The translations under genes and the position numbers were made by a program. Of a DNA stretch of 64,000 nucleotides, positions 4,361 through 63,764 are shown one piece after another (position 1 is the first letter of the stretch; the number at the start of each line of letters is the position of its first letter). The stretch is from assembly GCA_045589295.1 (NCBI GenBank), contig JAZNOU010000021.1, forward strand, positions 36,636 through 100,635, written 5' to 3'. This stretch comes from Clostridia bacterium. GTDB taxonomy: Bacteria > Bacillota > Clostridia > RGIG6154. The notes beneath the pieces are model-generated. The model was not told the origin of the DNA and made no database searches. It saw only the letters and a list, made by a program, of their open reading frames with translations.

Positions 4361-4373
4361 AAATTCATTATAA

Positions 4374-4562
4374 ACCCCGCCTGACCGTTTCCCTGTCAAT
4401 TTTAAACCTGAATTTTCAGGTGGGTTTCCTCTCATTTGCTTAATCGCTCCTCCAATGCCACAAATGTGGGGAGGCCTGCAAGCCACAAACGAAGTCAGAA
4501 TCCCTTAAAATGAGTGTTGGTTCAAAACACGTACAAGGACTAAACACGAATCAGGCAGGATA
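4374..4562 (-). ncRNA. ssrS: 6S RNA
   Basis: ~190 nt intergenic, GC-richer than flanks; ends pair (CCTGCCTGA..CGT / ACG..TCAGGCGGGG); internal TTGAACCAACAC..AGGGA and GAGAGGAAACCCACCTG..AGGTTTAA segments resemble clostridial 6S RNAs; terminator follows. Confidence 0.75.
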
Positions 4563-4573
4563 AGGGGATTAAA

Positions 4574-25876: not shown

Positions 25877-25963
25877 GCGGATATGGCGGAATTGGCAGAC
25901 GCGCATGGTTCAGGTCCATGTGAAAGCGATTTCATGCAGGTTCAAGTCCTGTTATCCGCACCA
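25877..25963 (+). tRNA. tRNA-Leu (anticodon CAG)
   Basis: GCGGATA/TATCCGC acceptor stem, D-loop GGCAGAC, anticodon arm CATGG-TTCAGGT-CCATG, long variable arm, GGTTCAAGTCC T-arm, encoded CCA. Confidence 0.96.
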
Positions 25964-56365: not shown

Positions 56366-56534
56366 TGTCATTAAAGCAACTTGCTCTGCATTTCTTTTTA
56401 TTGCAAAATATATCCAAGATTTCTAAGTAACATAATAACATATATATAATTACATTGTCAACATATTTAGAAATCATATAATATAAATTACAGAAAAAAT
56501 GCGAATATTACCAAGAAATTCGGGGAAAATAGTG

Positions 56535-56563
56535 TTGACAAAGAAAAATTTTTTTGCTATACT
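56535..56563 (+). promoter_or_regulatory. sigmaA promoter of the T-box leader
   Basis: TTGACA-17nt-TATACT with extended -10 TG. Confidence 0.75.
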
Positions 56564-56569
56564 ATTTGT

Positions 56570-56790
56570 GTTGGAGACTCAGCTTTTGTGGAAAGTCTGA
56601 AAGGGAGAATACGCCGTGGACTGAAAGCGTATTTGAGATGAGTAGTAAGTTTGGGAACACTCCAATTTAAGTTATTTTAATATTTATAAAAGCGGACACA
56701 GCTTAGTGTCAATGCGGGTGGCACCGCGGGTTAAACTTTTGTTTACTCGTCCCGGGAATATTCTTATATTCCCGGGATTTTTTATTTTTA
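56570..56790 (+). promoter_or_regulatory. T-box riboswitch (probable Asn specifier AAC) upstream of aspS-gat operon
   Basis: Stem I closing TTGGAG/CTCCAA with AGGGAGA and GACTGAAAG motifs and GAAC loop; T-box AATGCGGGTGGCACCGCG; terminator TCCCGGGAATA..TATTCCCGGGA-T run. Confidence 0.9.
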
Positions 56791-56806
56791 GTAGGAGGAA
56801 AATATC

Positions 56807-58882
56807 ATGTACAGAACTCTATTTTGTAACGACATACGTGATGAGCACATCGGCAAAACTGTTGAACTTGCAGGTTGGGTTGATGTTGTGCGTGACCACG
56901 GTGGCGTTATATTTATCGACCTTCGTGACTACACAGGTGTAACTCAGGTTGTTGTTCACGATGAATCTCTTTTAAAAGATGTTAACCGTGAAACTGTTAT
57001 CACCGTTAGCGGCACAGTTGAAAAACGTGCTTTAGAAACAGTTAACGAAAAAATTGACACAGGTAATGTTGAACTTGTGGCAAATACTCTTAAGGTGCTT
57101 GGAAAAAGTCAAAACATGCTTCCTTTTGACGTTCGTGCATCAAGATTAAGCAAGGATGAATTAAGACTTAAATATCGTTATCTTGACCTTCGTAATCCAA
57201 AAAACCATGATAATCTTGTTAAACGTTCACAGATTATCCGCCACTTAAGAAACAAAATGGAAGACAAGGGTTTCTTAGATATGCAAACACCTATCCTTAC
57301 TGCATCATCACCTGAAGGTGCAAGAGACTTTTTGGTGCCAAGCCGTAAGCATCCGGGAAAATTCTATGCTCTTCCTCAGGCACCACAGCAGTTTAAACAG
57401 CTTTTAATGGTGTCAGGTTTTGACAGATATTTTCAGATTGCACCATGCTTCAGGGATGAAGACGCACGTGCTGACCGTTCACCCGGTGAATTTTATCAGC
57501 TCGACTTTGAAATGGCATTTGCAACACAAGAAGAAGTTTTAGATGTTTGTGAAGATGTAATTTACGACACTTTCAAAACATTCTCAGATAAAAAGATTTC
57601 TCCAAAGCCATTCAGACGTATCACTTATGCAGATGCAATGATGACATACGGTTCAGATAAGCCTGATTTAAGAAACCCGCTTATTATTTGTGATCTTACA
57701 GAATTTTTCTCGACTGTTGGCTTCCCTGCTTTTAAAGGAAAACCTGTCCGTGGTATTGTTGCAAACTGCTTTGGAAAATCTAAAAAATTCTTTGAAGATT
57801 CTCTTAAGTTTGCTACTTCACCTGAGGTTGGTCTTGGCGGTCTTGGTTATATCACACTTAAAGACGGCGTGTTCGCAGGTCCTATTGCCAAATTCTTAAC
57901 AGATGATAAAAAAGCTGAAATCATTTCTCTTACAGGCGTAAAAGAAAATGAAACCCTGTTCTTTATTTGTGATGAAAAGAAAAACGATACTGAGAAAAAA
58001 GCAGGTTTAATCAGAACGTGGCTTGCAAAAAAGGAACAGCTTGATCTTATAAATGAAGATGCATTTGAATTCTGTTTTGTTGTTGACTTCCCAATGTATG
58101 AAATTGATGAAGAAACAGGCGAAACAATCTTTACTCACAACCCATTCTCTATGCCTCAGGGCGGAATGGACGCTCTTTTAAACAAAGAGCCTACTGAAGT
58201 ATTAGCATATCAGTACGACCTTGTTGGTAACGGTATAGAACTTGCATCAGGTGCTGTTCGTAACCACGATATAGATGTTATGAGAAAGGCATTTGAAATT
58301 GCAGGTTATCCTGAAGAAGAACTCAAAAAACGTTTCAATGCTCTTTATACAGCATTCCAGTATGGTGCTCCTCCTCATGCAGGTATGGCACCTGGCATTG
58401 ACCGTATGGTTATGCTTCTTACTGATGAAGAAAAAATTCTTGATGTTATCGCATTCCCTCTTAATGGTAATGCTCAGGACTTACTCTTAGGTGCTCCAAG
58501 CGAAGTTACAAATCAACAGCTTGAAGATGTTCACCTTTTAGGCAGTGGCAGTGCTTTAGCACAACGTGCTGCATCAACAGGTGCAAATAAAGCATCTTCT
58601 GGCAAACGTTCTACTTTTTCAAACGCTCAGCAGCTTAATCAGCTTTCTCTTACTGATGAAGAAGAGGCACTTGTTCAGGGTATTTTCGGAAACATGAATG
58701 AAAAAGAACAGATTTTAGCAAAAACTAACACAGATGATGTTGAACCAATGGTACACGTTATGCCAATGACCAATGTATTGCGTGAAGACGTTCGCAATCA
58801 GCCGTTTTCAAGAGAAAGCCTTTTAGAAGGCGCTCCTGAACGCAACGATGACAGTTGGCAAGTACCAAGACTTGTAAAGTGA
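56807..58882 (+). CDS. aspS: Aspartate--tRNA(Asp/Asn) ligase fused at its C-terminus to GatC
   Basis: RDHGG..FIDLRD, LKYRYLDLR, PEGARDF, LPQAPQ.FKQ, CFRDED.RADR, GAPPHAG..PGIDR; then a Gly/Ser/Ala linker and GatC-like VEPMVHV...NVLRED.....SRE.LL..AP....WQVPRLV. Confidence 0.93.
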   Translation: MYRTLFCNDIRDEHIGKTVELAGWVDVVRDHGGVIFIDLRDYTGVTQVVVHDESLLKDVNRETVITVSGTVEKRALETVNEKIDTGNVELVANTLKVLGKSQNMLPFDVRASRLSKDELRLKYRYLDLRNPKNHDNLVKRSQIIRHLRNKMEDKGFLDMQTPILTASSPEGARDFLVPSRKHPGKFYALPQAPQQFKQLLMVSGFDRYFQIAPCFRDEDARADRSPGEFYQLDFEMAFATQEEVLDVCEDVIYDTFKTFSDKKISPKPFRRITYADAMMTYGSDKPDLRNPLIICDLTEFFSTVGFPAFKGKPVRGIVANCFGKSKKFFEDSLKFATSPEVGLGGLGYITLKDGVFAGPIAKFLTDDKKAEIISLTGVKENETLFFICDEKKNDTEKKAGLIRTWLAKKEQLDLINEDAFEFCFVVDFPMYEIDEETGETIFTHNPFSMPQGGMDALLNKEPTEVLAYQYDLVGNGIELASGAVRNHDIDVMRKAFEIAGYPEEELKKRFNALYTAFQYGAPPHAGMAPGIDRMVMLLTDEEKILDVIAFPLNGNAQDLLLGAPSEVTNQQLEDVHLLGSGSALAQRAASTGANKASSGKRSTFSNAQQLNQLSLTDEEEALVQGIFGNMNEKEQILAKTNTDDVEPMVHVMPMTNVLREDVRNQPFSRESLLEGAPERNDDSWQVPRLVK

Positions 58883-58892
58883 GGTGTTTAAA

Positions 58893-60071
58893 ATGAATTT
58901 CTATGCTACAAAAATTGGTGATGGAAACATTGCTATTGACGACACAATTCTTGTAAAAGATGTTGAAGCAACTGCAGGTTCTAAAATTTTAAGCGGTTTC
59001 AAACCTCTCTTTAGTGCAGAAGCTGTTACAAGACTTGAAAACAAAGGTTATAAAATTTCAGGAAAATCTCACGTTGGTGAGTTTGGTCTTGATTTAGTCG
59101 GTGAATTTTCTTACCTTTCAGAAAAAGAAGACACTTTAAAAGGTGCTGCAGCAGAATTAGTTGCAAAAGGCGAAGTTAAAGCCGCTTTAGGCGTTGATAT
59201 GAACGGCGCTCCAAGACGTGCAGCTGCAATTTCAGGTGTTTCATTCTTAAAACCTACCTACGGTACAGTTTCACGTTATGGTGTTATTTCTTGTGCTGCA
59301 TCTGGTGAACAGGTTGGCGTTTATGCAAAAAACACATCTGAAGTTAAAGAAATCATGGATGTAATTGCAGGTCACGATGACAAAGATGGCACAAGCTTAA
59401 GAAATGAAACTTACGACTATACAATTTCTTCTGCATCAGGCAAAAAAGTTGCTTTAATAAAAGAACTTTTTGAAAAAGCAGATAATGAAACAAAAAAAGA
59501 AATTGAAAAAAGCATTGATGTGCTTAAAGCTCAGGGTGTTTCAGTTGAAGAAATTTCATTTGATATTTTTGATACCGCAAACACTGCTTGGCAGATTCTT
59601 ATGACTGCAGAAACATGCAACAACGTATCTCGTTATGATGGTGTTAAATACGGCCACAGAGCAAAAGAATATAAAAACATTGATGAACTTTATGTTAATT
59701 CAAGAACTGAAGGATTTAATTTCCTTACAAAAGCAGTAATTTTATACGGTTCTGATGTTCTTTCAAAAAATCGTTATAAAGATTGCTATGATAAATCTTT
59801 AAAAGTTCGTAGAGTTATTGCTGAGAGATTTGAAGCTTTAATGAAAGAATATGATGCAGTTTTAACACCTGTATCAAGCAAAACTTCATACGAAAAATAT
59901 GATATTAAAGATGCATTTATGAAAGTGTTTGAAGAAAGTGTATTCACTTCTCTTGCAAACCTCATCGGCGTTCCGGCGCTTGCTTGCAAAAACGTTCAGT
60001 TTGTTGGAAAACACTTCTCAGAAAGCACACTTTTAAGCCTTGCAAACGCTTTGGAAAAGGAGGACAAATAA
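58893..60071 (+). CDS. gatA: GatA-like amidase-fold protein, truncated, catalytic residues absent
   Basis: T.GSKIL..F.P.F.A..V.RL, LKPTYGTVSRYG, IAGHD.KD.TS, N.SRYDGVKYG.R, SR.EGF, ANL.G.PA retained; GAGGTG RBS overlaps the aspS stop. Confidence 0.85.
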   Translation: MNFYATKIGDGNIAIDDTILVKDVEATAGSKILSGFKPLFSAEAVTRLENKGYKISGKSHVGEFGLDLVGEFSYLSEKEDTLKGAAAELVAKGEVKAALGVDMNGAPRRAAAISGVSFLKPTYGTVSRYGVISCAASGEQVGVYAKNTSEVKEIMDVIAGHDDKDGTSLRNETYDYTISSASGKKVALIKELFEKADNETKKEIEKSIDVLKAQGVSVEEISFDIFDTANTAWQILMTAETCNNVSRYDGVKYGHRAKEYKNIDELYVNSRTEGFNFLTKAVILYGSDVLSKNRYKDCYDKSLKVRRVIAERFEALMKEYDAVLTPVSSKTSYEKYDIKDAFMKVFEESVFTSLANLIGVPALACKNVQFVGKHFSESTLLSLANALEKEDK

Positions 60072-60072
60072 T

Positions 60073-61491
60073 ATGAACTACGAAATAGTTATTGGTCTTG
60101 AAACACACGTTGAACTTGACACAAACTCTAAAATTTTCTGTTCATGCGGTGGTCATTCATCAGCAAATGAGCCAAACGATTGCGTTTGTCCTGCTTGCAG
60201 TGGTATGCCGGGTATGCTCCCTGTTATGAACAAAAGAGTTGTTGAACTTGCAGCAACTGCAGGTCTTATGCTGGGCTGTAACATTAACAAATATACAACA
60301 TTTGACAAAAAGAACTACTACTACCCTGACCTCCCTTGTGCCTATCAGATTACTCAGATTAACCATCCGATCTGCACAGATGGTTTGGTAACTTTAAAAA
60401 CATCTTTGGGTCCAAGAGATATCCGTATTAAACAGATTCACATGGAAGAAGATGCAGGTAAACTTGTGCATATGGGAAATTCTTCATATGTAGATTTCAA
60501 CAGAACAAGCGTTCCTTTAATTGAAATTGTTACTCAGCCTGATTTCAGAAGTGCTGAAGAAGTTGTAAACTATCTTAACAAATTAAAATCAATGTTCATC
60601 CTTGGCGGAATTTCAGAATGTGAAGAAGGCGCAATGCGTTGCGATGTTAACATTTCTGTTCGTCCTGAAGGAAGCGAAGAATTTGGCGTTCGTACAGAAA
60701 TCAAAAACATGAGTTCATTCGAAGCAATTGAAAAAGCAATCAAATATGAAGCACAGCGTCATATTGATGCTTTGGAATTTGAAACTGAAGAACTCGTTCA
60801 GGAAACAAGACGTTTTGATGATGTAAGCGGAAAAACATTTGCTATGAGAAATAAAGAAACAGAAGCAGATTACCGCTACTTCCCTGATGCAAACCTTATG
60901 CCTATTATCATCGATGATGAATGGCTTGAACAGATTAAGGCTAATAAGCCTGCCGCTGTTGATGAAAAAGCAGAAGATTATCGCGCTGCAGGAATTTCCG
61001 ACAAAGAAATTGATATGCTCATTTCAAACAACAAATTAAGTACACTCTTAGATGATGTTGTTAAAATGGGTTGTAACGCAAAAGATGCTGCAGGTTGGAT
61101 TCTTACAGACTGTGCAGGTATTTTAAGAAAAGACGGCAAGACATTAAGCGAGCTTAATGTTACTGCAGAAAAACTTTCAACCATTATTAAAATGGTAGAT
61201 GATGGTAAGATCAACAGAAATGCAGGTAAGAAAATCTTAATCGCAGTTGTTGAAAGCGATGTTGATCCAGTTGCTTACTGCAAAGAAAATGGTCTTGACA
61301 AAAAGTTTGATTCATCAGCAATTGAATCCGTTATTGAAAAAGTTATTGCTGATAATGCACAGGCTGTTGAAGACTTTAAAAATGGTAAAGTTAAAGCGCT
61401 TCAGGCTCTCTTTGGTGCTTGTATGAAAGAACTTAAGGGTGCAGGTGACCCACAGATTATCAAAACTCTTCTTGAAGAAAAATTAAAATAA
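60073..61491 (+). CDS. gatB: Asp-tRNA(Asn)/Glu-tRNA(Gln) amidotransferase subunit B
   Basis: IGLETHVEL, KIFC.C, KNYYYPDLP..YQITQ, IHMEEDAGK, DFNR..VPLIEIVT.P, RCDVNIS, EIKN, QETR, DYRYFPD, C-terminal YqeY-like domain. Confidence 0.96.
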   Translation: MNYEIVIGLETHVELDTNSKIFCSCGGHSSANEPNDCVCPACSGMPGMLPVMNKRVVELAATAGLMLGCNINKYTTFDKKNYYYPDLPCAYQITQINHPICTDGLVTLKTSLGPRDIRIKQIHMEEDAGKLVHMGNSSYVDFNRTSVPLIEIVTQPDFRSAEEVVNYLNKLKSMFILGGISECEEGAMRCDVNISVRPEGSEEFGVRTEIKNMSSFEAIEKAIKYEAQRHIDALEFETEELVQETRRFDDVSGKTFAMRNKETEADYRYFPDANLMPIIIDDEWLEQIKANKPAAVDEKAEDYRAAGISDKEIDMLISNNKLSTLLDDVVKMGCNAKDAAGWILTDCAGILRKDGKTLSELNVTAEKLSTIIKMVDDGKINRNAGKKILIAVVESDVDPVAYCKENGLDKKFDSSAIESVIEKVIADNAQAVEDFKNGKVKALQALFGACMKELKGAGDPQIIKTLLEEKLK

Positions 61492-61500
61492 CAAAACTTG

Positions 61501-61532
61501 TTTGGCGGAAGTAAAATTTTACTTCCGCCAAA
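61501..61532. repeat. Perfect 32 bp palindrome between gatB and the asparaginase gene
   Basis: TTTGGCGGAAGTAAAA|TTTTACTTCCGCCAAA; no clear U tract follows on the plus strand. Confidence 0.8.
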
Positions 61533-61546
61533 TTACAGGAGAAAAT

Positions 61547-62605
61547 ATGAAAAATATTTTGCTTATATTAGTGGGCGGAACAATTTGCACTTCCATTAAC
61601 AAAGATGGTACTTTATCAGTAAGCGAAAATGCAGGTGCTTTAATCAAAGCTAATTTTGAAAACTCTGATTCACCCTATGCTAAAAATGTTAACATTGATT
61701 TAACAGAAAATTTATTTATTTTAAGCGAAAATATGACTGTTGACAAATGGAATGCCATTATACAAACATATGTTAATTATACAAGCAAAAAAAAATACGA
61801 TGGTATTATTTTTGCTCATGGAACTGACACACTCGCCTATTCATCCGCACTTTTTTCAATGCTCTTAAGCACAACGGATATTCCTGTGTTTTTTGTATCT
61901 TCTAATAGAAGACTTGATGCAAAAGATTCTAACGGAAATGAAAACTTTAAAGCTGCAGTTGAATTGATTGCAAAAGGCATTACTCCAAACGTGTATGTAA
62001 CTTACAAAAATCCATCAGATAACAGAATGTATTTGCACCTAGGTTCAAGACTTGAACAATGCAAAAACTATTCCGATGACTTTTACAGCTGTGGTATGCT
62101 TGATATAACTGATATTTGTGATGAAAACTATAAGGTTTACTTAAGCCAAATAGAAACTATGTATCCAAAGGAAAATACTAAATCATTTATATCCATATAT
62201 GATTGTCCAAAACTTTCAGAATGCATATTACTAATCCAGCCATACGTTGGCATCAACTACAGTGTGTATGATTACTCAAACTTTCGTGCTGTTTTGCATA
62301 GCACCTTCCATTCAGGAACTGCTTGTGCAGAACAAAACAGCAAAAATTCAGTTCTTCATTTGATTAAAGTTTGCAGCAAATTGGAAAAAGATATAGATAC
62401 CTACATTTCTCCGTCAAAATTAAACGGAGAAATATATGAAACCGTAAGTACTATAGCCCATTCAAAAATAGTATTTTTATATGGTTACACATTAGAAACC
62501 GCTTATGCAAAACTTTTGATTGCTTATTCCCTCTTTGACAGCAATGAAAAAAGGTCAGAATTTATTAAAACTGAATGCAATTATGAAATAATATATAAGG
62601 AATGA
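61547..62605 (+). CDS. Asparaginase/glutaminase-fold protein (type I / GatD-like)
   Basis: GGTI, ILSENM, DG...AHGTDT..Y, PV, SN.R, YETA, E.AYAKL; ATG 61547 after AGGAG. Confidence 0.82.
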   Translation: MKNILLILVGGTICTSINKDGTLSVSENAGALIKANFENSDSPYAKNVNIDLTENLFILSENMTVDKWNAIIQTYVNYTSKKKYDGIIFAHGTDTLAYSSALFSMLLSTTDIPVFFVSSNRRLDAKDSNGNENFKAAVELIAKGITPNVYVTYKNPSDNRMYLHLGSRLEQCKNYSDDFYSCGMLDITDICDENYKVYLSQIETMYPKENTKSFISIYDCPKLSECILLIQPYVGINYSVYDYSNFRAVLHSTFHSGTACAEQNSKNSVLHLIKVCSKLEKDIDTYISPSKLNGEIYETVSTIAHSKIVFLYGYTLETAYAKLLIAYSLFDSNEKRSEFIKTECNYEIIYKE

Positions 62606-62609
62606 TAAA

Positions 62610-63764
62610 ATGACAGAAAAATTATACTATGCTGACGCCTACTTAAAAAAATTTGAAGCTACAGTTTTAGCTTGCAAAAAAAACGGCGATTTTTACGATA
62701 TAATTTTAGATAAAACCGCTTTCTGTCCTGAAGGTGGCGGTCAGGGTGCCGATACCGGAATTATAAACGGAATAAAAATCATTGATGTTCAAGAATGTGG
62801 TGAAGAAATTGTTCACAAAGCAGAATCTGCAATAAACGTAGATGAAAAAGTATCAGGCGAAATTGATTGGGATTTAAGATATTCTAAAATGCAAAGTCAT
62901 TCAGGTGAACATATTGTATCAGGAATTGTTCATTCAATGTTTGGTTATACAAACTCAGGGTTTCACATGAACGAATCAACTATGACAGTAGATTTCAGTG
63001 GTCCGCTTTCATTGGAAGATATTGAAAAAGTTGAACTTGAATGCAACAAAGCAATTTATAAAAATGCGGTAATCTCTTCCTCTTTCCCATCTAAAGAAGA
63101 TGCTGAAAACTTAAGTTTCAGAAGCAAGCTTGATATAGACAGCGGCTTAAGATTAATTACTATTGACGGAATTGACTGTTGTGCTTGTTGTGCACCGCAC
63201 GTTAAGCAAACAGGTGAAATAGGAATTATAAAAATTCTGGAATTTGCTCCACACAGACAAGGCACAAGAGTAGAAATGACTGCAGGTATTAATGCACTTA
63301 AAGATTATCTTCGTTTAAGCGAATCAAACAAGGCGCTGATGAAATTATTATCAACTCCGAGATATGAAGTTAAAGATGCAGTTATTAAGCAAAATGAGGC
63401 GTTAAATGAGTTTAAAACATTAAATCAGAATATGTCAAAAAGACTTGCTCTTGCTGAACTTAAAACAATATCTGTTGGAAACAATTTATACTCAATTTCA
63501 AAAGATTTAAGTTATGATGATTTAAGACATTGTGCTAACACAATAATTGAAAATGGAACTCCCCTTTGTGTTTTATTTTCAAAGTCAACAGAAACAGATT
63601 ATTTTTATGTTGTAAGTTCTGATTTAGATGTGTCTGACATTGTAAAAACAATTAATACCACACTAAATGGTAAAGGTGGCGGCAGAGGAAATTACGCACA
63701 AGGAAAAGTTACCGTTGAAAACGAATCAATGCTTATTGAAGCAATTGAAAACATTTTAAAATAA
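62610..63764 (+). CDS. AlaX-type alanyl-tRNA editing protein with C-terminal DHHA1 domain
   Basis: LYY.DAY, LDKTAF.PEGGGQ..D.G, QSHSGEH (HxxxH), CCAPH (CxxxH), GKGGG..AQG. Confidence 0.9.
   Translation: MTEKLYYADAYLKKFEATVLACKKNGDFYDIILDKTAFCPEGGGQGADTGIINGIKIIDVQECGEEIVHKAESAINVDEKVSGEIDWDLRYSKMQSHSGEHIVSGIVHSMFGYTNSGFHMNESTMTVDFSGPLSLEDIEKVELECNKAIYKNAVISSSFPSKEDAENLSFRSKLDIDSGLRLITIDGIDCCACCAPHVKQTGEIGIIKILEFAPHRQGTRVEMTAGINALKDYLRLSESNKALMKLLSTPRYEVKDAVIKQNEALNEFKTLNQNMSKRLALAELKTISVGNNLYSISKDLSYDDLRHCANTIIENGTPLCVLFSKSTETDYFYVVSSDLDVSDIVKTINTTLNGKGGGRGNYAQGKVTVENESMLIEAIENILK

Follow-up and report, generated by a model that had tools for sequence, protein, structure and literature searches.

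How does a cell make Asn-tRNA(Asn) when its only GatA subunit has lost the catalytic residues, and where does the amide nitrogen then come from? This question is raised by an operon in a stretch of 64,000 nucleotides of the Clostridia bacterium assembly GCA_045589295.1 (contig JAZNOU010000021.1, positions 36,636 to 100,635; the whole stretch is called the window here, and its own coordinates are used). At 56537-63764 on the + strand, a promoter-like hexamer pair and a leader RNA are followed by closely packed reading frames, all of them uninterrupted, which encode an aspartyl-tRNA synthetase fused to GatC (AspRS-GatC), a GatA homologue (GatA'), GatB, an asparaginase-fold protein (AsnL) and AlaX. 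An original prediction, made from the letters of the window alone, had read a T-box leader and these five genes as a dedicated tRNA-dependent system for Asn-tRNA(Asn), with a GatA devoid of catalytic residues. All six elements lie on the + strand where they had been placed, and both parts of that reading were borne out.

Standard accounts recognize GatCAB, whose glutaminase is GatA, and the archaeal GatDE as the two amidotransferases (PMC2330236). We found that the host has no other route to Asn-tRNA(Asn) than this operon, which is regulated by tRNA(Asn), and we regard this as firm. As to the nitrogen, the explanation that we consider the most probable, on balance, is that GatA' serves as a scaffold and that ammonia comes from outside GatA, with AsnL as a likely but dispensable source.

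GatA', the leader and the route to Asn-tRNA(Asn)

The amidase family uses a Ser-cisSer-Lys triad, and the nucleophile is Ser178 in the GatA of S. aureus (PMC2330236). GatA' was aligned to solved GatA and to five full-length canonical GatA from related genomes, and the triad of GatCAB was found to be absent from it. The Lys column holds Asp (IAIDD, compared with AVKDN in canonical GatA), a deletion of 9 residues removes the cis-Ser loop GGSSGGS, and GVDMNGA replaces GSDTGGS, with Ala in the nucleophile Ser column. In addition, about 55 N-terminal residues of canonical GatA are absent, only positions 52-445 of the Pfam Amidase profile are matched, and there are a second deletion (10 residues) and a shorter tail. 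The score against TIGR00132 was 273.9, for a cut-off of 481.1.

The same losses were found in all 21 homologues: each has Asp or Glu in the Lys column and is without the GGSSGGS loop. A, S and M are all found in the nucleophile column, and Ser is kept in 8 of the 22 sequences. Meanwhile, 83 columns are invariant among the 22 GatA' sequences, and many of these are also conserved in canonical GatA, which fits a structural role. The ratio of nonsynonymous to synonymous substitution (dN/dS) of gatA' was 0.06-0.14 in 8 pairs; for comparison, it was 0.02-0.07 for GatB and 0.02-0.085 for AspRS-GatC, and all four core genes lie within 0.02-0.14. Judged from its sequence, we are firm that GatA' cannot be a Ser-cisSer-Lys amidase, and yet purifying selection keeps it. 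Published work assigns GatA and GatC a necessary part in folding and in the assembly of a complex with GatB (PMC2330236), and GatA' may be retained as a scaffold.

The leader of the operon is a tRNA(Asn) T-box. In a search of 701 nucleotides, it matched the Rfam T-box model RF00230 at 56526-56757 with 47.6 bits (E 2.6e-9). The gathering score of this model is 93 bits, and the whole-window gathering scan has no T-box entry because the leader scores below it. We collected the leaders from 20 related loci, and 18 leaders were folded, including that of the window and leaving out the divergent ones of loci L031, L032 and L034. The consensus fold contains 49 pairs, of which 23 show compensatory changes, and includes the basal helix. 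In the 3' strand of its internal (specifier) loop, 18/18 leaders have AAC, within the sequence [G/C]AAC[A/G]; AAC and a purine stand ahead of the basal helix, and GGGUGGCACCGCG is invariant across the fold. Furthermore, the terminator shares sequence with the 3' arm of the antiterminator (in the window, the intrinsic terminator is 56753-56785 plus the U run), and a TTGACA...TATAAT pair is aligned in most of the related leaders. The leader family therefore has the specifier codon in stem I, the UGGN bulge and the antiterminator/terminator alternation by which a T-box is recognized. The L031 and L032 leaders exceed the gathering score of RF00230 (115.2 and 99.1 bits, respectively) and show GAA-N-AAC-A at the specifier position in the Rfam alignments; the L034 leader was read by eye. 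Another T-box over the gathering score (110.1 bits) was seen at L026:1743-1960, upstream of an open reading frame of 877 aa and not adjoining AsnL, in a genome whose AsnL is unlinked.

The host genome (1.54 Mb in 22 contigs, 97.4% complete) holds a single Amidase/GatA, a single GatB, a single GatC and a single asparaginase homologue, each within the operon. AsnRS and AsnA were not found in this 97.4% complete genome, nor was AsnB, for which the two weak PF00733 matches are MnmA and GuaA. The three class-IIb synthetases are the AspRS of the operon, LysRS and an archaeal-type AspRS, and GlnRS occurs alongside GluRS. The original prediction had named a degenerating one-off locus next to an intact gatCAB as the case that would overturn it; this case is excluded, and its proposed check for asnS, asnA/asnB and a second canonical gatCAB in the host found none of them. 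In addition, the single tRNA-Asn(GUU) gene of the host has U1-A72 and G73, and its tRNA-Asp has G1-C72. The G73 fits the UGGC bulge of the T-box leader, and U1-A72 is the determinant recognized by bacterial GatCAB (PMC2330236).

The second AspRS of the host, at G000:C5:185-1537 on the - strand, matches NF003483, 'aspartate--tRNA(Asn) ligase', with 436 bits for a cut-off of 353. In most other genomes with the module, the second AspRS is instead bacterial-type, with about 600 aa. Within one genus we observed two alternative asparagine cassettes, asnA-asnS or the module with triad-less GatA. The sister genome G010 (L052, G010:C4:64500-70500) has the archaeal-type aspS, asnA and asnS in a row, together with a canonical GatA; the host G000 (C5:1-4000) and the sister genome G011 (L051) have the module, with no asnA or asnS at the aspS site.

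The genes of the operon and their related loci

The features of the window are listed in Table 1. The mechanical starts of two reading frames (gatB at 60040 and asnL at 61502) were moved downstream after comparison with homologues. According to Pfam, the AspRS part of the fusion is bacterial-type and consists of the OB domain, the catalytic core (tRNA-synt_2) and GAD; the product matches NCBIfam NF001750 at 733 bits. A low-complexity linker of about 35 residues leads to the GatC domain (about residues 603-690; Pfam, 615-686), and the fusion scores 48.4 against the gatC model TIGR00135, for a cut-off of 47.1. GatB covers the whole of GatB_N (1-277 of 277 positions) and GatB_Yqey (3-148 of 148) and passes three NCBIfam GatB equivalogs, among them NF004012 (564.6, cut-off 338) and TIGR00133 (501.4, cut-off 314.8). 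Scored as GatE, it reaches 165.4 for a cut-off of 456, so that the partner in this operon is not GatE. AlaX has Pfam tRNA_SAD, DHHA1 and tRNA-synt_2c matches and scores 159.7 bits against AlaXM, under the cut-off of 300. The editing core of AlaX-type proteins carries the motifs HxxxH and CxxxH; HSGEH and CCAPH can be read in the translation, and we judged that AlaX has this core.

Table 1. Features of the window discussed in the text
Feature	Position	Strand	Basis and remarks
sigma-70-like promoter (TTGACA, 17 nt, TATACT)	56537..56566	+	read from the sequence; putative function; precedes the leader
T-box leader	56567..56792	+	AAC (Asn) specifier, UGGC bulge, antiterminator overlapping intrinsic terminator
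aspS-gatC, 691 aa	56807..58882	+	Pfam, NCBIfam
gatA', 395 aa	58884..60071	+	truncated GatA homologue without the amidase triad; putative pseudo-enzyme
gatB	60073..61491	+	full-length kinase/transamidase subunit; likely start ATG 60073, from homologues
asnL, 352 aa	61547..62605	+	type-I-asparaginase-fold protein; Pfam Asparaginase N-terminal domain; likely start ATG 61547
alaX	62610..63764	+	free-standing AlaRS-editing-domain homologue; C-terminal DHHA1 domain
6S RNA gene	4370..4564	-	Rfam RF00013, 89.9 bits, over gathering score
tRNA-Leu(CAG)	25877..25963	+	only tRNA in the window

A search with AsnL, taking one genome per species, gave 27 loci, all from uncultured Clostridia of guts. AspRS, GatA' and GatB were found in the fetched flanks of 21 of them. 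A 22nd locus, L027, is cut off where aspS begins; its genome carries the triad-less GatA on another contig. The 21 loci show three arrangements (16 colinear, 3 divergent and 2 convergent), and the four genes aspS-gatC, gatA', gatB and asnL are the only core common to them; AlaX follows AsnL in 5 of the 21, and in the window. The expectation that the asparaginase-like gene would be conserved beside the others has thus held. The covalent AspRS-GatC tether of the original prediction fared less evenly. The two genes are fused in 18 related loci, but aspS and gatC have their own starts in L031, L032 and L034. These three loci still carry a truncated, triad-less GatA, which argues that GatA died before the fusion arose, and the tether is a later addition.

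We also scored the 22 genomes with the system other than the host genome. AsnRS and AsnA over the cut-off were found in none of them and canonical GatA in one; AsnB was found in 8 and GlnRS in 19. The lack of a canonical GatA and of AsnRS was thus seen again, in 21/22 and 22/22 of them, respectively.

Two side observations concern asnL. In L031, a tRNA-Asn(GTT) gene (L031:7746-7821) precedes asnL on its strand by about 170 bases; between the two are a terminator-like hairpin and then a promoter-like site for asnL, and we count this placement in favor of the coupling of AsnL to the system. In addition, synonymous sites of asnL have diverged about two times as far as those of its neighbors aspS-gatC, gatA' and gatB when the same genomes are paired (for example, 1.17 for asnL and 0.47-0.59 for the neighbors; the pairs include L016/L020, L017/L019 and L018/L022), which may reflect a different history or recombination.

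The species distribution was investigated at two levels. The host family, which is the whole order, was represented by 18 species genomes. Triad-less GatA was found in 6 of them, with AsnRS in none of the six and AsnL at 486-520 bits in five. Among the other 12, canonical GatA occurs in 5 (one a fragment) and no GatA in 7, AsnRS is present in 8 and a strong AsnL in none. Both states of GatA are found within the host's own genus. For the class, 401 genomes were drawn evenly and 399 were scored, with a threshold of E<=1e-30 for the AsnL family. The counts are patterns and not statistics, since relatives do not count as independent and the majority of the genomes are bins. Triad-less GatA was found in 14/399 genomes from 9 families. 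AsnRS was found in 0/14 of these, and all 14 have an AsnL-family match, which scores at least 358 bits in 12. In the remaining two, one AsnL is cut by a contig end and the match of G011 reaches 188 bits. Meanwhile, 13 of the 385 other genomes have an AsnL-family match, all at 192-291 bits, and 0/385 reach 358 bits. AsnRS is over the cut-off in 325/399 genomes; AsnL-family matches occur in 23 of the 74 genomes without AsnRS and in 4 of the 325 with it. Furthermore, AsnRS was found in 0/5 genomes that combine an unlinked AsnL with normal GatA. Thus, the AsnL family tracks the loss of AsnRS generally and can serve as a phyletic marker for the absence of this enzyme.

AsnL and the source of the amide nitrogen

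The AlphaFold2 model of AsnL (pLDDT 93.1, pTM 0.92) has the two-domain fold of type I asparaginases. In a Foldseek search with this model, archaeal L-asparaginases came first (9ufq, E 8e-18, TMq 0.74; 5ot0, TMq 0.74) and GatD stood at rank 23 (TMq 0.70); the best PDB match of the single sequence was GatD (2d6f, E 1e-14). NCBIfam gave 106.4 bits for asnASE_I (cut-off 260.5) and 102 bits for gatD_arch, far under its cut-off. With the profile of the AsnL family, an archaeal asparaginase scored 108.5 bits and GatD of P. abyssi 105.3 bits, and the profile aligned residues 94-427 of the 438 of GatD, leaving its first approximately 90 residues without a counterpart. AsnL stands at least as far from GatD as from archaeal asparaginases, and the label 'GatD-like' of the original prediction needs this qualification.

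The catalytic set of asparaginases comprises a nucleophilic Thr, a Tyr on a flexible loop and a Thr-Asp-Lys group. The invariant residues of AsnL are G10 G11 T12, L59-M63, H91 G92 T93 D94, C172, Y238, H251, H255 and Y297, and its motifs are GGT, SENM and HGTDT, so that the Thr nucleophile and the Thr-Asp pair (Thr12, Thr93 and Asp94) are invariant. SE(N/D)M is as in GatD, whereas asparaginases have DS(S/T). A Thr-Lys-Asp triad is common to GatD and asparaginases (PMC2330236). AsnL lacks the full type I set. It also lacks the N-terminal domain that in GatD comes before two asparaginase-like domains, the triad Lys and the GatE partner that mark GatDE.

The family comprises 918 clusters at 50% identity (E<=1e-30), annotated by the sources as 'asparaginase' or 'hypothetical'; the ESM Atlas gave 'asparaginase' clusters only. 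Among the three longer relatives, P0003 (813 aa) is an AsnL-AlaX fusion with the order of the window genes, and P0001 and P0002 (707 and 684 aa) are fusions of AsnL with a PfkB-type kinase. In the tree of AsnL, the linked proteins form two clades with the unlinked ones between them, with moderate support, a pattern compatible with one recruitment of AsnL as well as with two. A second, more distant asparaginase-like subfamily was also seen, in L055 (G011:C100) and L049 (G014:C26). Its motifs are GGTIGS, LSE(N/Q)LS and HGTDT, Ser/Arg-His replaces Gln-Cys, and it is resident in the host family whatever the state of GatA.

We infer the following scheme, and with it the part of GatA' as scaffold, the origin of the ammonia and all enzymatic activities. 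Uncharged tRNA(Asn) would bind the T-box with the GUU anticodon, read by the specifier AAC, and with the 3' end, and transcription would read through. The AspRS part of the fusion would charge tRNA(Asn) with aspartate, and GatB, tethered to the synthetase by the fused GatC, would phosphorylate and then amidate the tRNA-bound aspartate. GatA' would be a pseudo-enzyme without glutamine hydrolysis, kept as a structural partner for GatB and GatC. Because GatA' cannot hydrolyze glutamine, the amide nitrogen would reach GatB as ammonia made elsewhere. The most likely supplier would be AsnL, with free Asn or Gln as substrate, alongside the free ammonium that abounds in the gut. What makes AsnL the foremost candidate is that it is linked to the other genes and co-occurs with them. 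However, it would be a helpful, dispensable accessory rather than an obligatory subunit of the GatD type, because of its altered active site, its life outside the system and the operon of G011. Free ammonium would be the fallback, and its use is plausible, as the sister species G010 carries the ammonia-dependent AsnA with AsnRS instead of the module. The original prediction had offered the neighboring asparaginase-like protein or free ammonium as donor. For AsnL, linkage and co-occurrence agree with that proposal, and its unlinked occurrence with normal GatA and its absence from the G011 operon do not.

Several observations weigh against this explanation. Nearly all AsnL members have Gln at the position of the triad Lys, with an invariant Cys after it, and the loop after GGT has no counterpart of the flexible-loop Tyr. 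Because these two canonical residues are absent, the hydrolase activity of AsnL is not assured. AsnL homologues with 30-44% identity stand in unrelated neighborhoods in five genomes with full-length GatA, where they adjoin cell-wall and sugar genes. The operon of G011, a member of the host's genus whose GatA' and GatB are 76% and 91% identical to those of the window, is gatA'-gatB-alaX, with alaX directly after gatB and no asnL. The only AsnL-family member of G011 is a 31%-identical paralogue elsewhere in the genome, and a relative with normal GatA also has that paralogue. None of the three longer relatives joins AsnL to GatA or GatB. As for the host, its contig ends 184 bases past the archaeal-type aspS, where the sister G010 has asnA-asnS, and absences such as that of AsnRS are provisional, because most of the genomes are metagenome bins. 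Finally, no ammonium transporter (PF00909) was found in the host genome, which does encode a type-III-like glutamine synthetase, so that glutamine is not obviously scarce; neither of these two facts decides the nitrogen source.

The closest competitor holds that GatB and GatA' use free NH3/NH4+ from the ammonia-rich gut and that AsnL gives the complex no nitrogen. We regard it as possible but clearly less probable. It agrees with the G011 operon, in which triad-less GatA does without asnL, with the use of the ammonia-dependent AsnA by the sister species, and with the fact that AsnL follows the loss of AsnRS next to dead and normal GatA alike (23/74 against 4/325, and 0/5 for the unlinked cases). 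The N-terminal truncation and the loop deletions of GatA' could also open the tunnel to solvent. AsnL itself might then be a catabolic or salvage amidohydrolase, useful in cells that cannot charge free Asn, a role to which we give a similarly limited chance. However, ammonia alone leaves unexplained why, in 10 of 14 sampled genomes with triad-less GatA, from several families and in several arrangements, no more than about 4 kb separate asnL from gatB, and why asnL stands behind an Asn T-box in the colinear form; it also has to do without an Amt transporter, none having been found in the host genome.

A hybrid amidotransferase comes next, and we think it rather unlikely. Here, in the strong form of the original prediction, AsnL would be a stably bound GatD-like subunit that docks on GatA' or GatB and feeds the old GatA-GatB tunnel. 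In its favor is the strict co-occurrence of high-scoring AsnL and triad-less GatA (12/14 against 0/385 in the class, and 5/6 against 0/12 in the host family), together with a linkage held through three gene arrangements. The SE(N/D)M motif common to AsnL and GatD, the single-sequence match to GatD 2d6f and the AsnL-AlaX fusion, which ties AsnL to a tRNA-binding protein, point the same way. Nevertheless, AsnL has neither the first approximately 90 residues of GatD nor the triad Lys, and archaeal asparaginases rank above GatD by fold. Close relatives of AsnL live with normal GatA and unrelated neighbors, the G011 operon lacks asnL, and no AsnL-Gat fusion was found among the longer relatives. A prediction of the GatA'-AsnL complex from alignments scored 0.00 for a mark of 0.32, in a run without controls, and counts neither for nor against binding. 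If the hybrid were real, it would be a third class of tRNA-dependent amidotransferase.

It is very improbable that GatA' is still a hydrolase with a different set of residues: its strong conservation (83 invariant columns) and the Ser in the nucleophile column of 8/22 sequences would suit such an enzyme, but the Lys column is Asp or Glu and the cis-Ser loop deleted in 22/22, the nucleophile column varies, and many of the invariant columns are shared with canonical GatA and fit a structural role. Least credible of all is a decaying, non-functional remnant, with Asn-tRNA(Asn) made by genes missing from the assembly, for although the genomes are bins and the contig of the host ends near the asnA-asnS site of the sister, the frames are intact with dN/dS of 0.02-0.14 for all four genes, the architecture recurs in 21 loci and in 14/399 sampled genomes, AsnRS is found in 0/22, 0/6 and 0/14 of the sets with triad-less GatA, and G011 has an rRNA dimethylase gene, not asnA-asnS, downstream of aspS.

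A more speculative reading, which we put forward as a doubtful idea, is an 'AsnRS in trans', which would likewise be a third kind of tRNA-dependent amidotransferase. Free Asn, for which these cells have no charging enzyme, would be hydrolyzed by the recruited AsnL, which would supply the GatB of an AspRS-GatC/pseudo-GatA/GatB complex. If true, the Asp from free Asn would be loaded on tRNA(Asn) and the ammonia returned to the tRNA-bound Asp, in a process switched on by uncharged tRNA(Asn) in gut Clostridia without AsnRS.

Comparison with known systems

A search of the literature, with most subscription journals outside its scope, found no triad-less GatA as the only amidotransferase subunit and, within the same scope of few such journals, no asparaginase-family gene traveling with a triad-less GatA in bacteria. 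What we found no description of is a dead GatA as the sole GatA together with a traveling asnL; the T-box aspS-gatCAB operon and the AspRS/GatC fusion are known. The claim that the architecture as a whole is undescribed therefore stands for the combination and not for the fusion, which is already modeled as NF009460. The finding means that uncultured gut and rumen Clostridia depend on a GatCAB with triad-less GatA for an essential step of translation. It raises the questions of the source of the amide nitrogen, of the need for GatA beyond catalysis and of the recruitment of the asparaginase family to a bacterial transamidosome.

Like the bacterial Asn-transamidosome, which is built on a non-discriminating AspRS, the module has an AspRS with GAD, GatC, a GatA homologue, GatB and a U1-A72 tRNA(Asn) (PMC2330236). 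The known complex is non-covalent and its GatA is an active glutaminase. In the module, however, most members have GatC fused to AspRS, the triad and some 55 N-terminal residues are gone from GatA, and a gene of the asparaginase family accompanies the others.

A T-box-controlled aspS-gatCAB operon is known from Clostridium acetobutylicum, and there, as in the window, the T-box leader governs the whole transamidation route (PMC4574755). An overlapping GAA/AAC specifier reading is possible in 15 of the 18 leaders folded here. Such a reading was reportedly proposed for the C. acetobutylicum leader by Saad et al. in 2012 and 2013, whose operon is said to encode a normal GatCAB and a separate AspRS in a genome that is redundant for Asn routes. 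Compared with that operon, the module has a dead GatA, no redundancy and asnL in addition.

The fusion resembles the bifunctional AspRS/GatC of NF009460 (PRK12820), in which the domains have the same order, AspRS and then GatC. However, it is not a member of that equivalog, because it scores 456.6 bits for a cut-off of 1379. Seen in the light of the split-gene loci, the AspRS-GatC fusion probably arose separately from NF009460 and after GatA had died.

With the type I L-asparaginases, both the archaeal ones of Thermococcus/Pyrococcus and the bacterial AnsA, AsnL shares the two-domain fold, GGT and HGTDT. It differs from them in the Gln and invariant Cys in place of Lys, in the lack of the loop Tyr and in additional invariant His and Tyr residues of the C-terminal domain.

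GatDE is the archaeal signature enzyme for Glu-tRNA(Gln) (PMC2330236). As in GatDE, an asparaginase-fold protein is putatively paired in the module with a kinase/transamidase of the GatB family, and SE(N/D)M, HGTDT and the Thr nucleophile are shared. AsnL differs from GatD in having neither its N-terminal domain nor the triad Lys. Furthermore, the putative partner of AsnL is GatB and not GatE, the substrate would be Asp-tRNA(Asn), and the module retains a relic of GatA.

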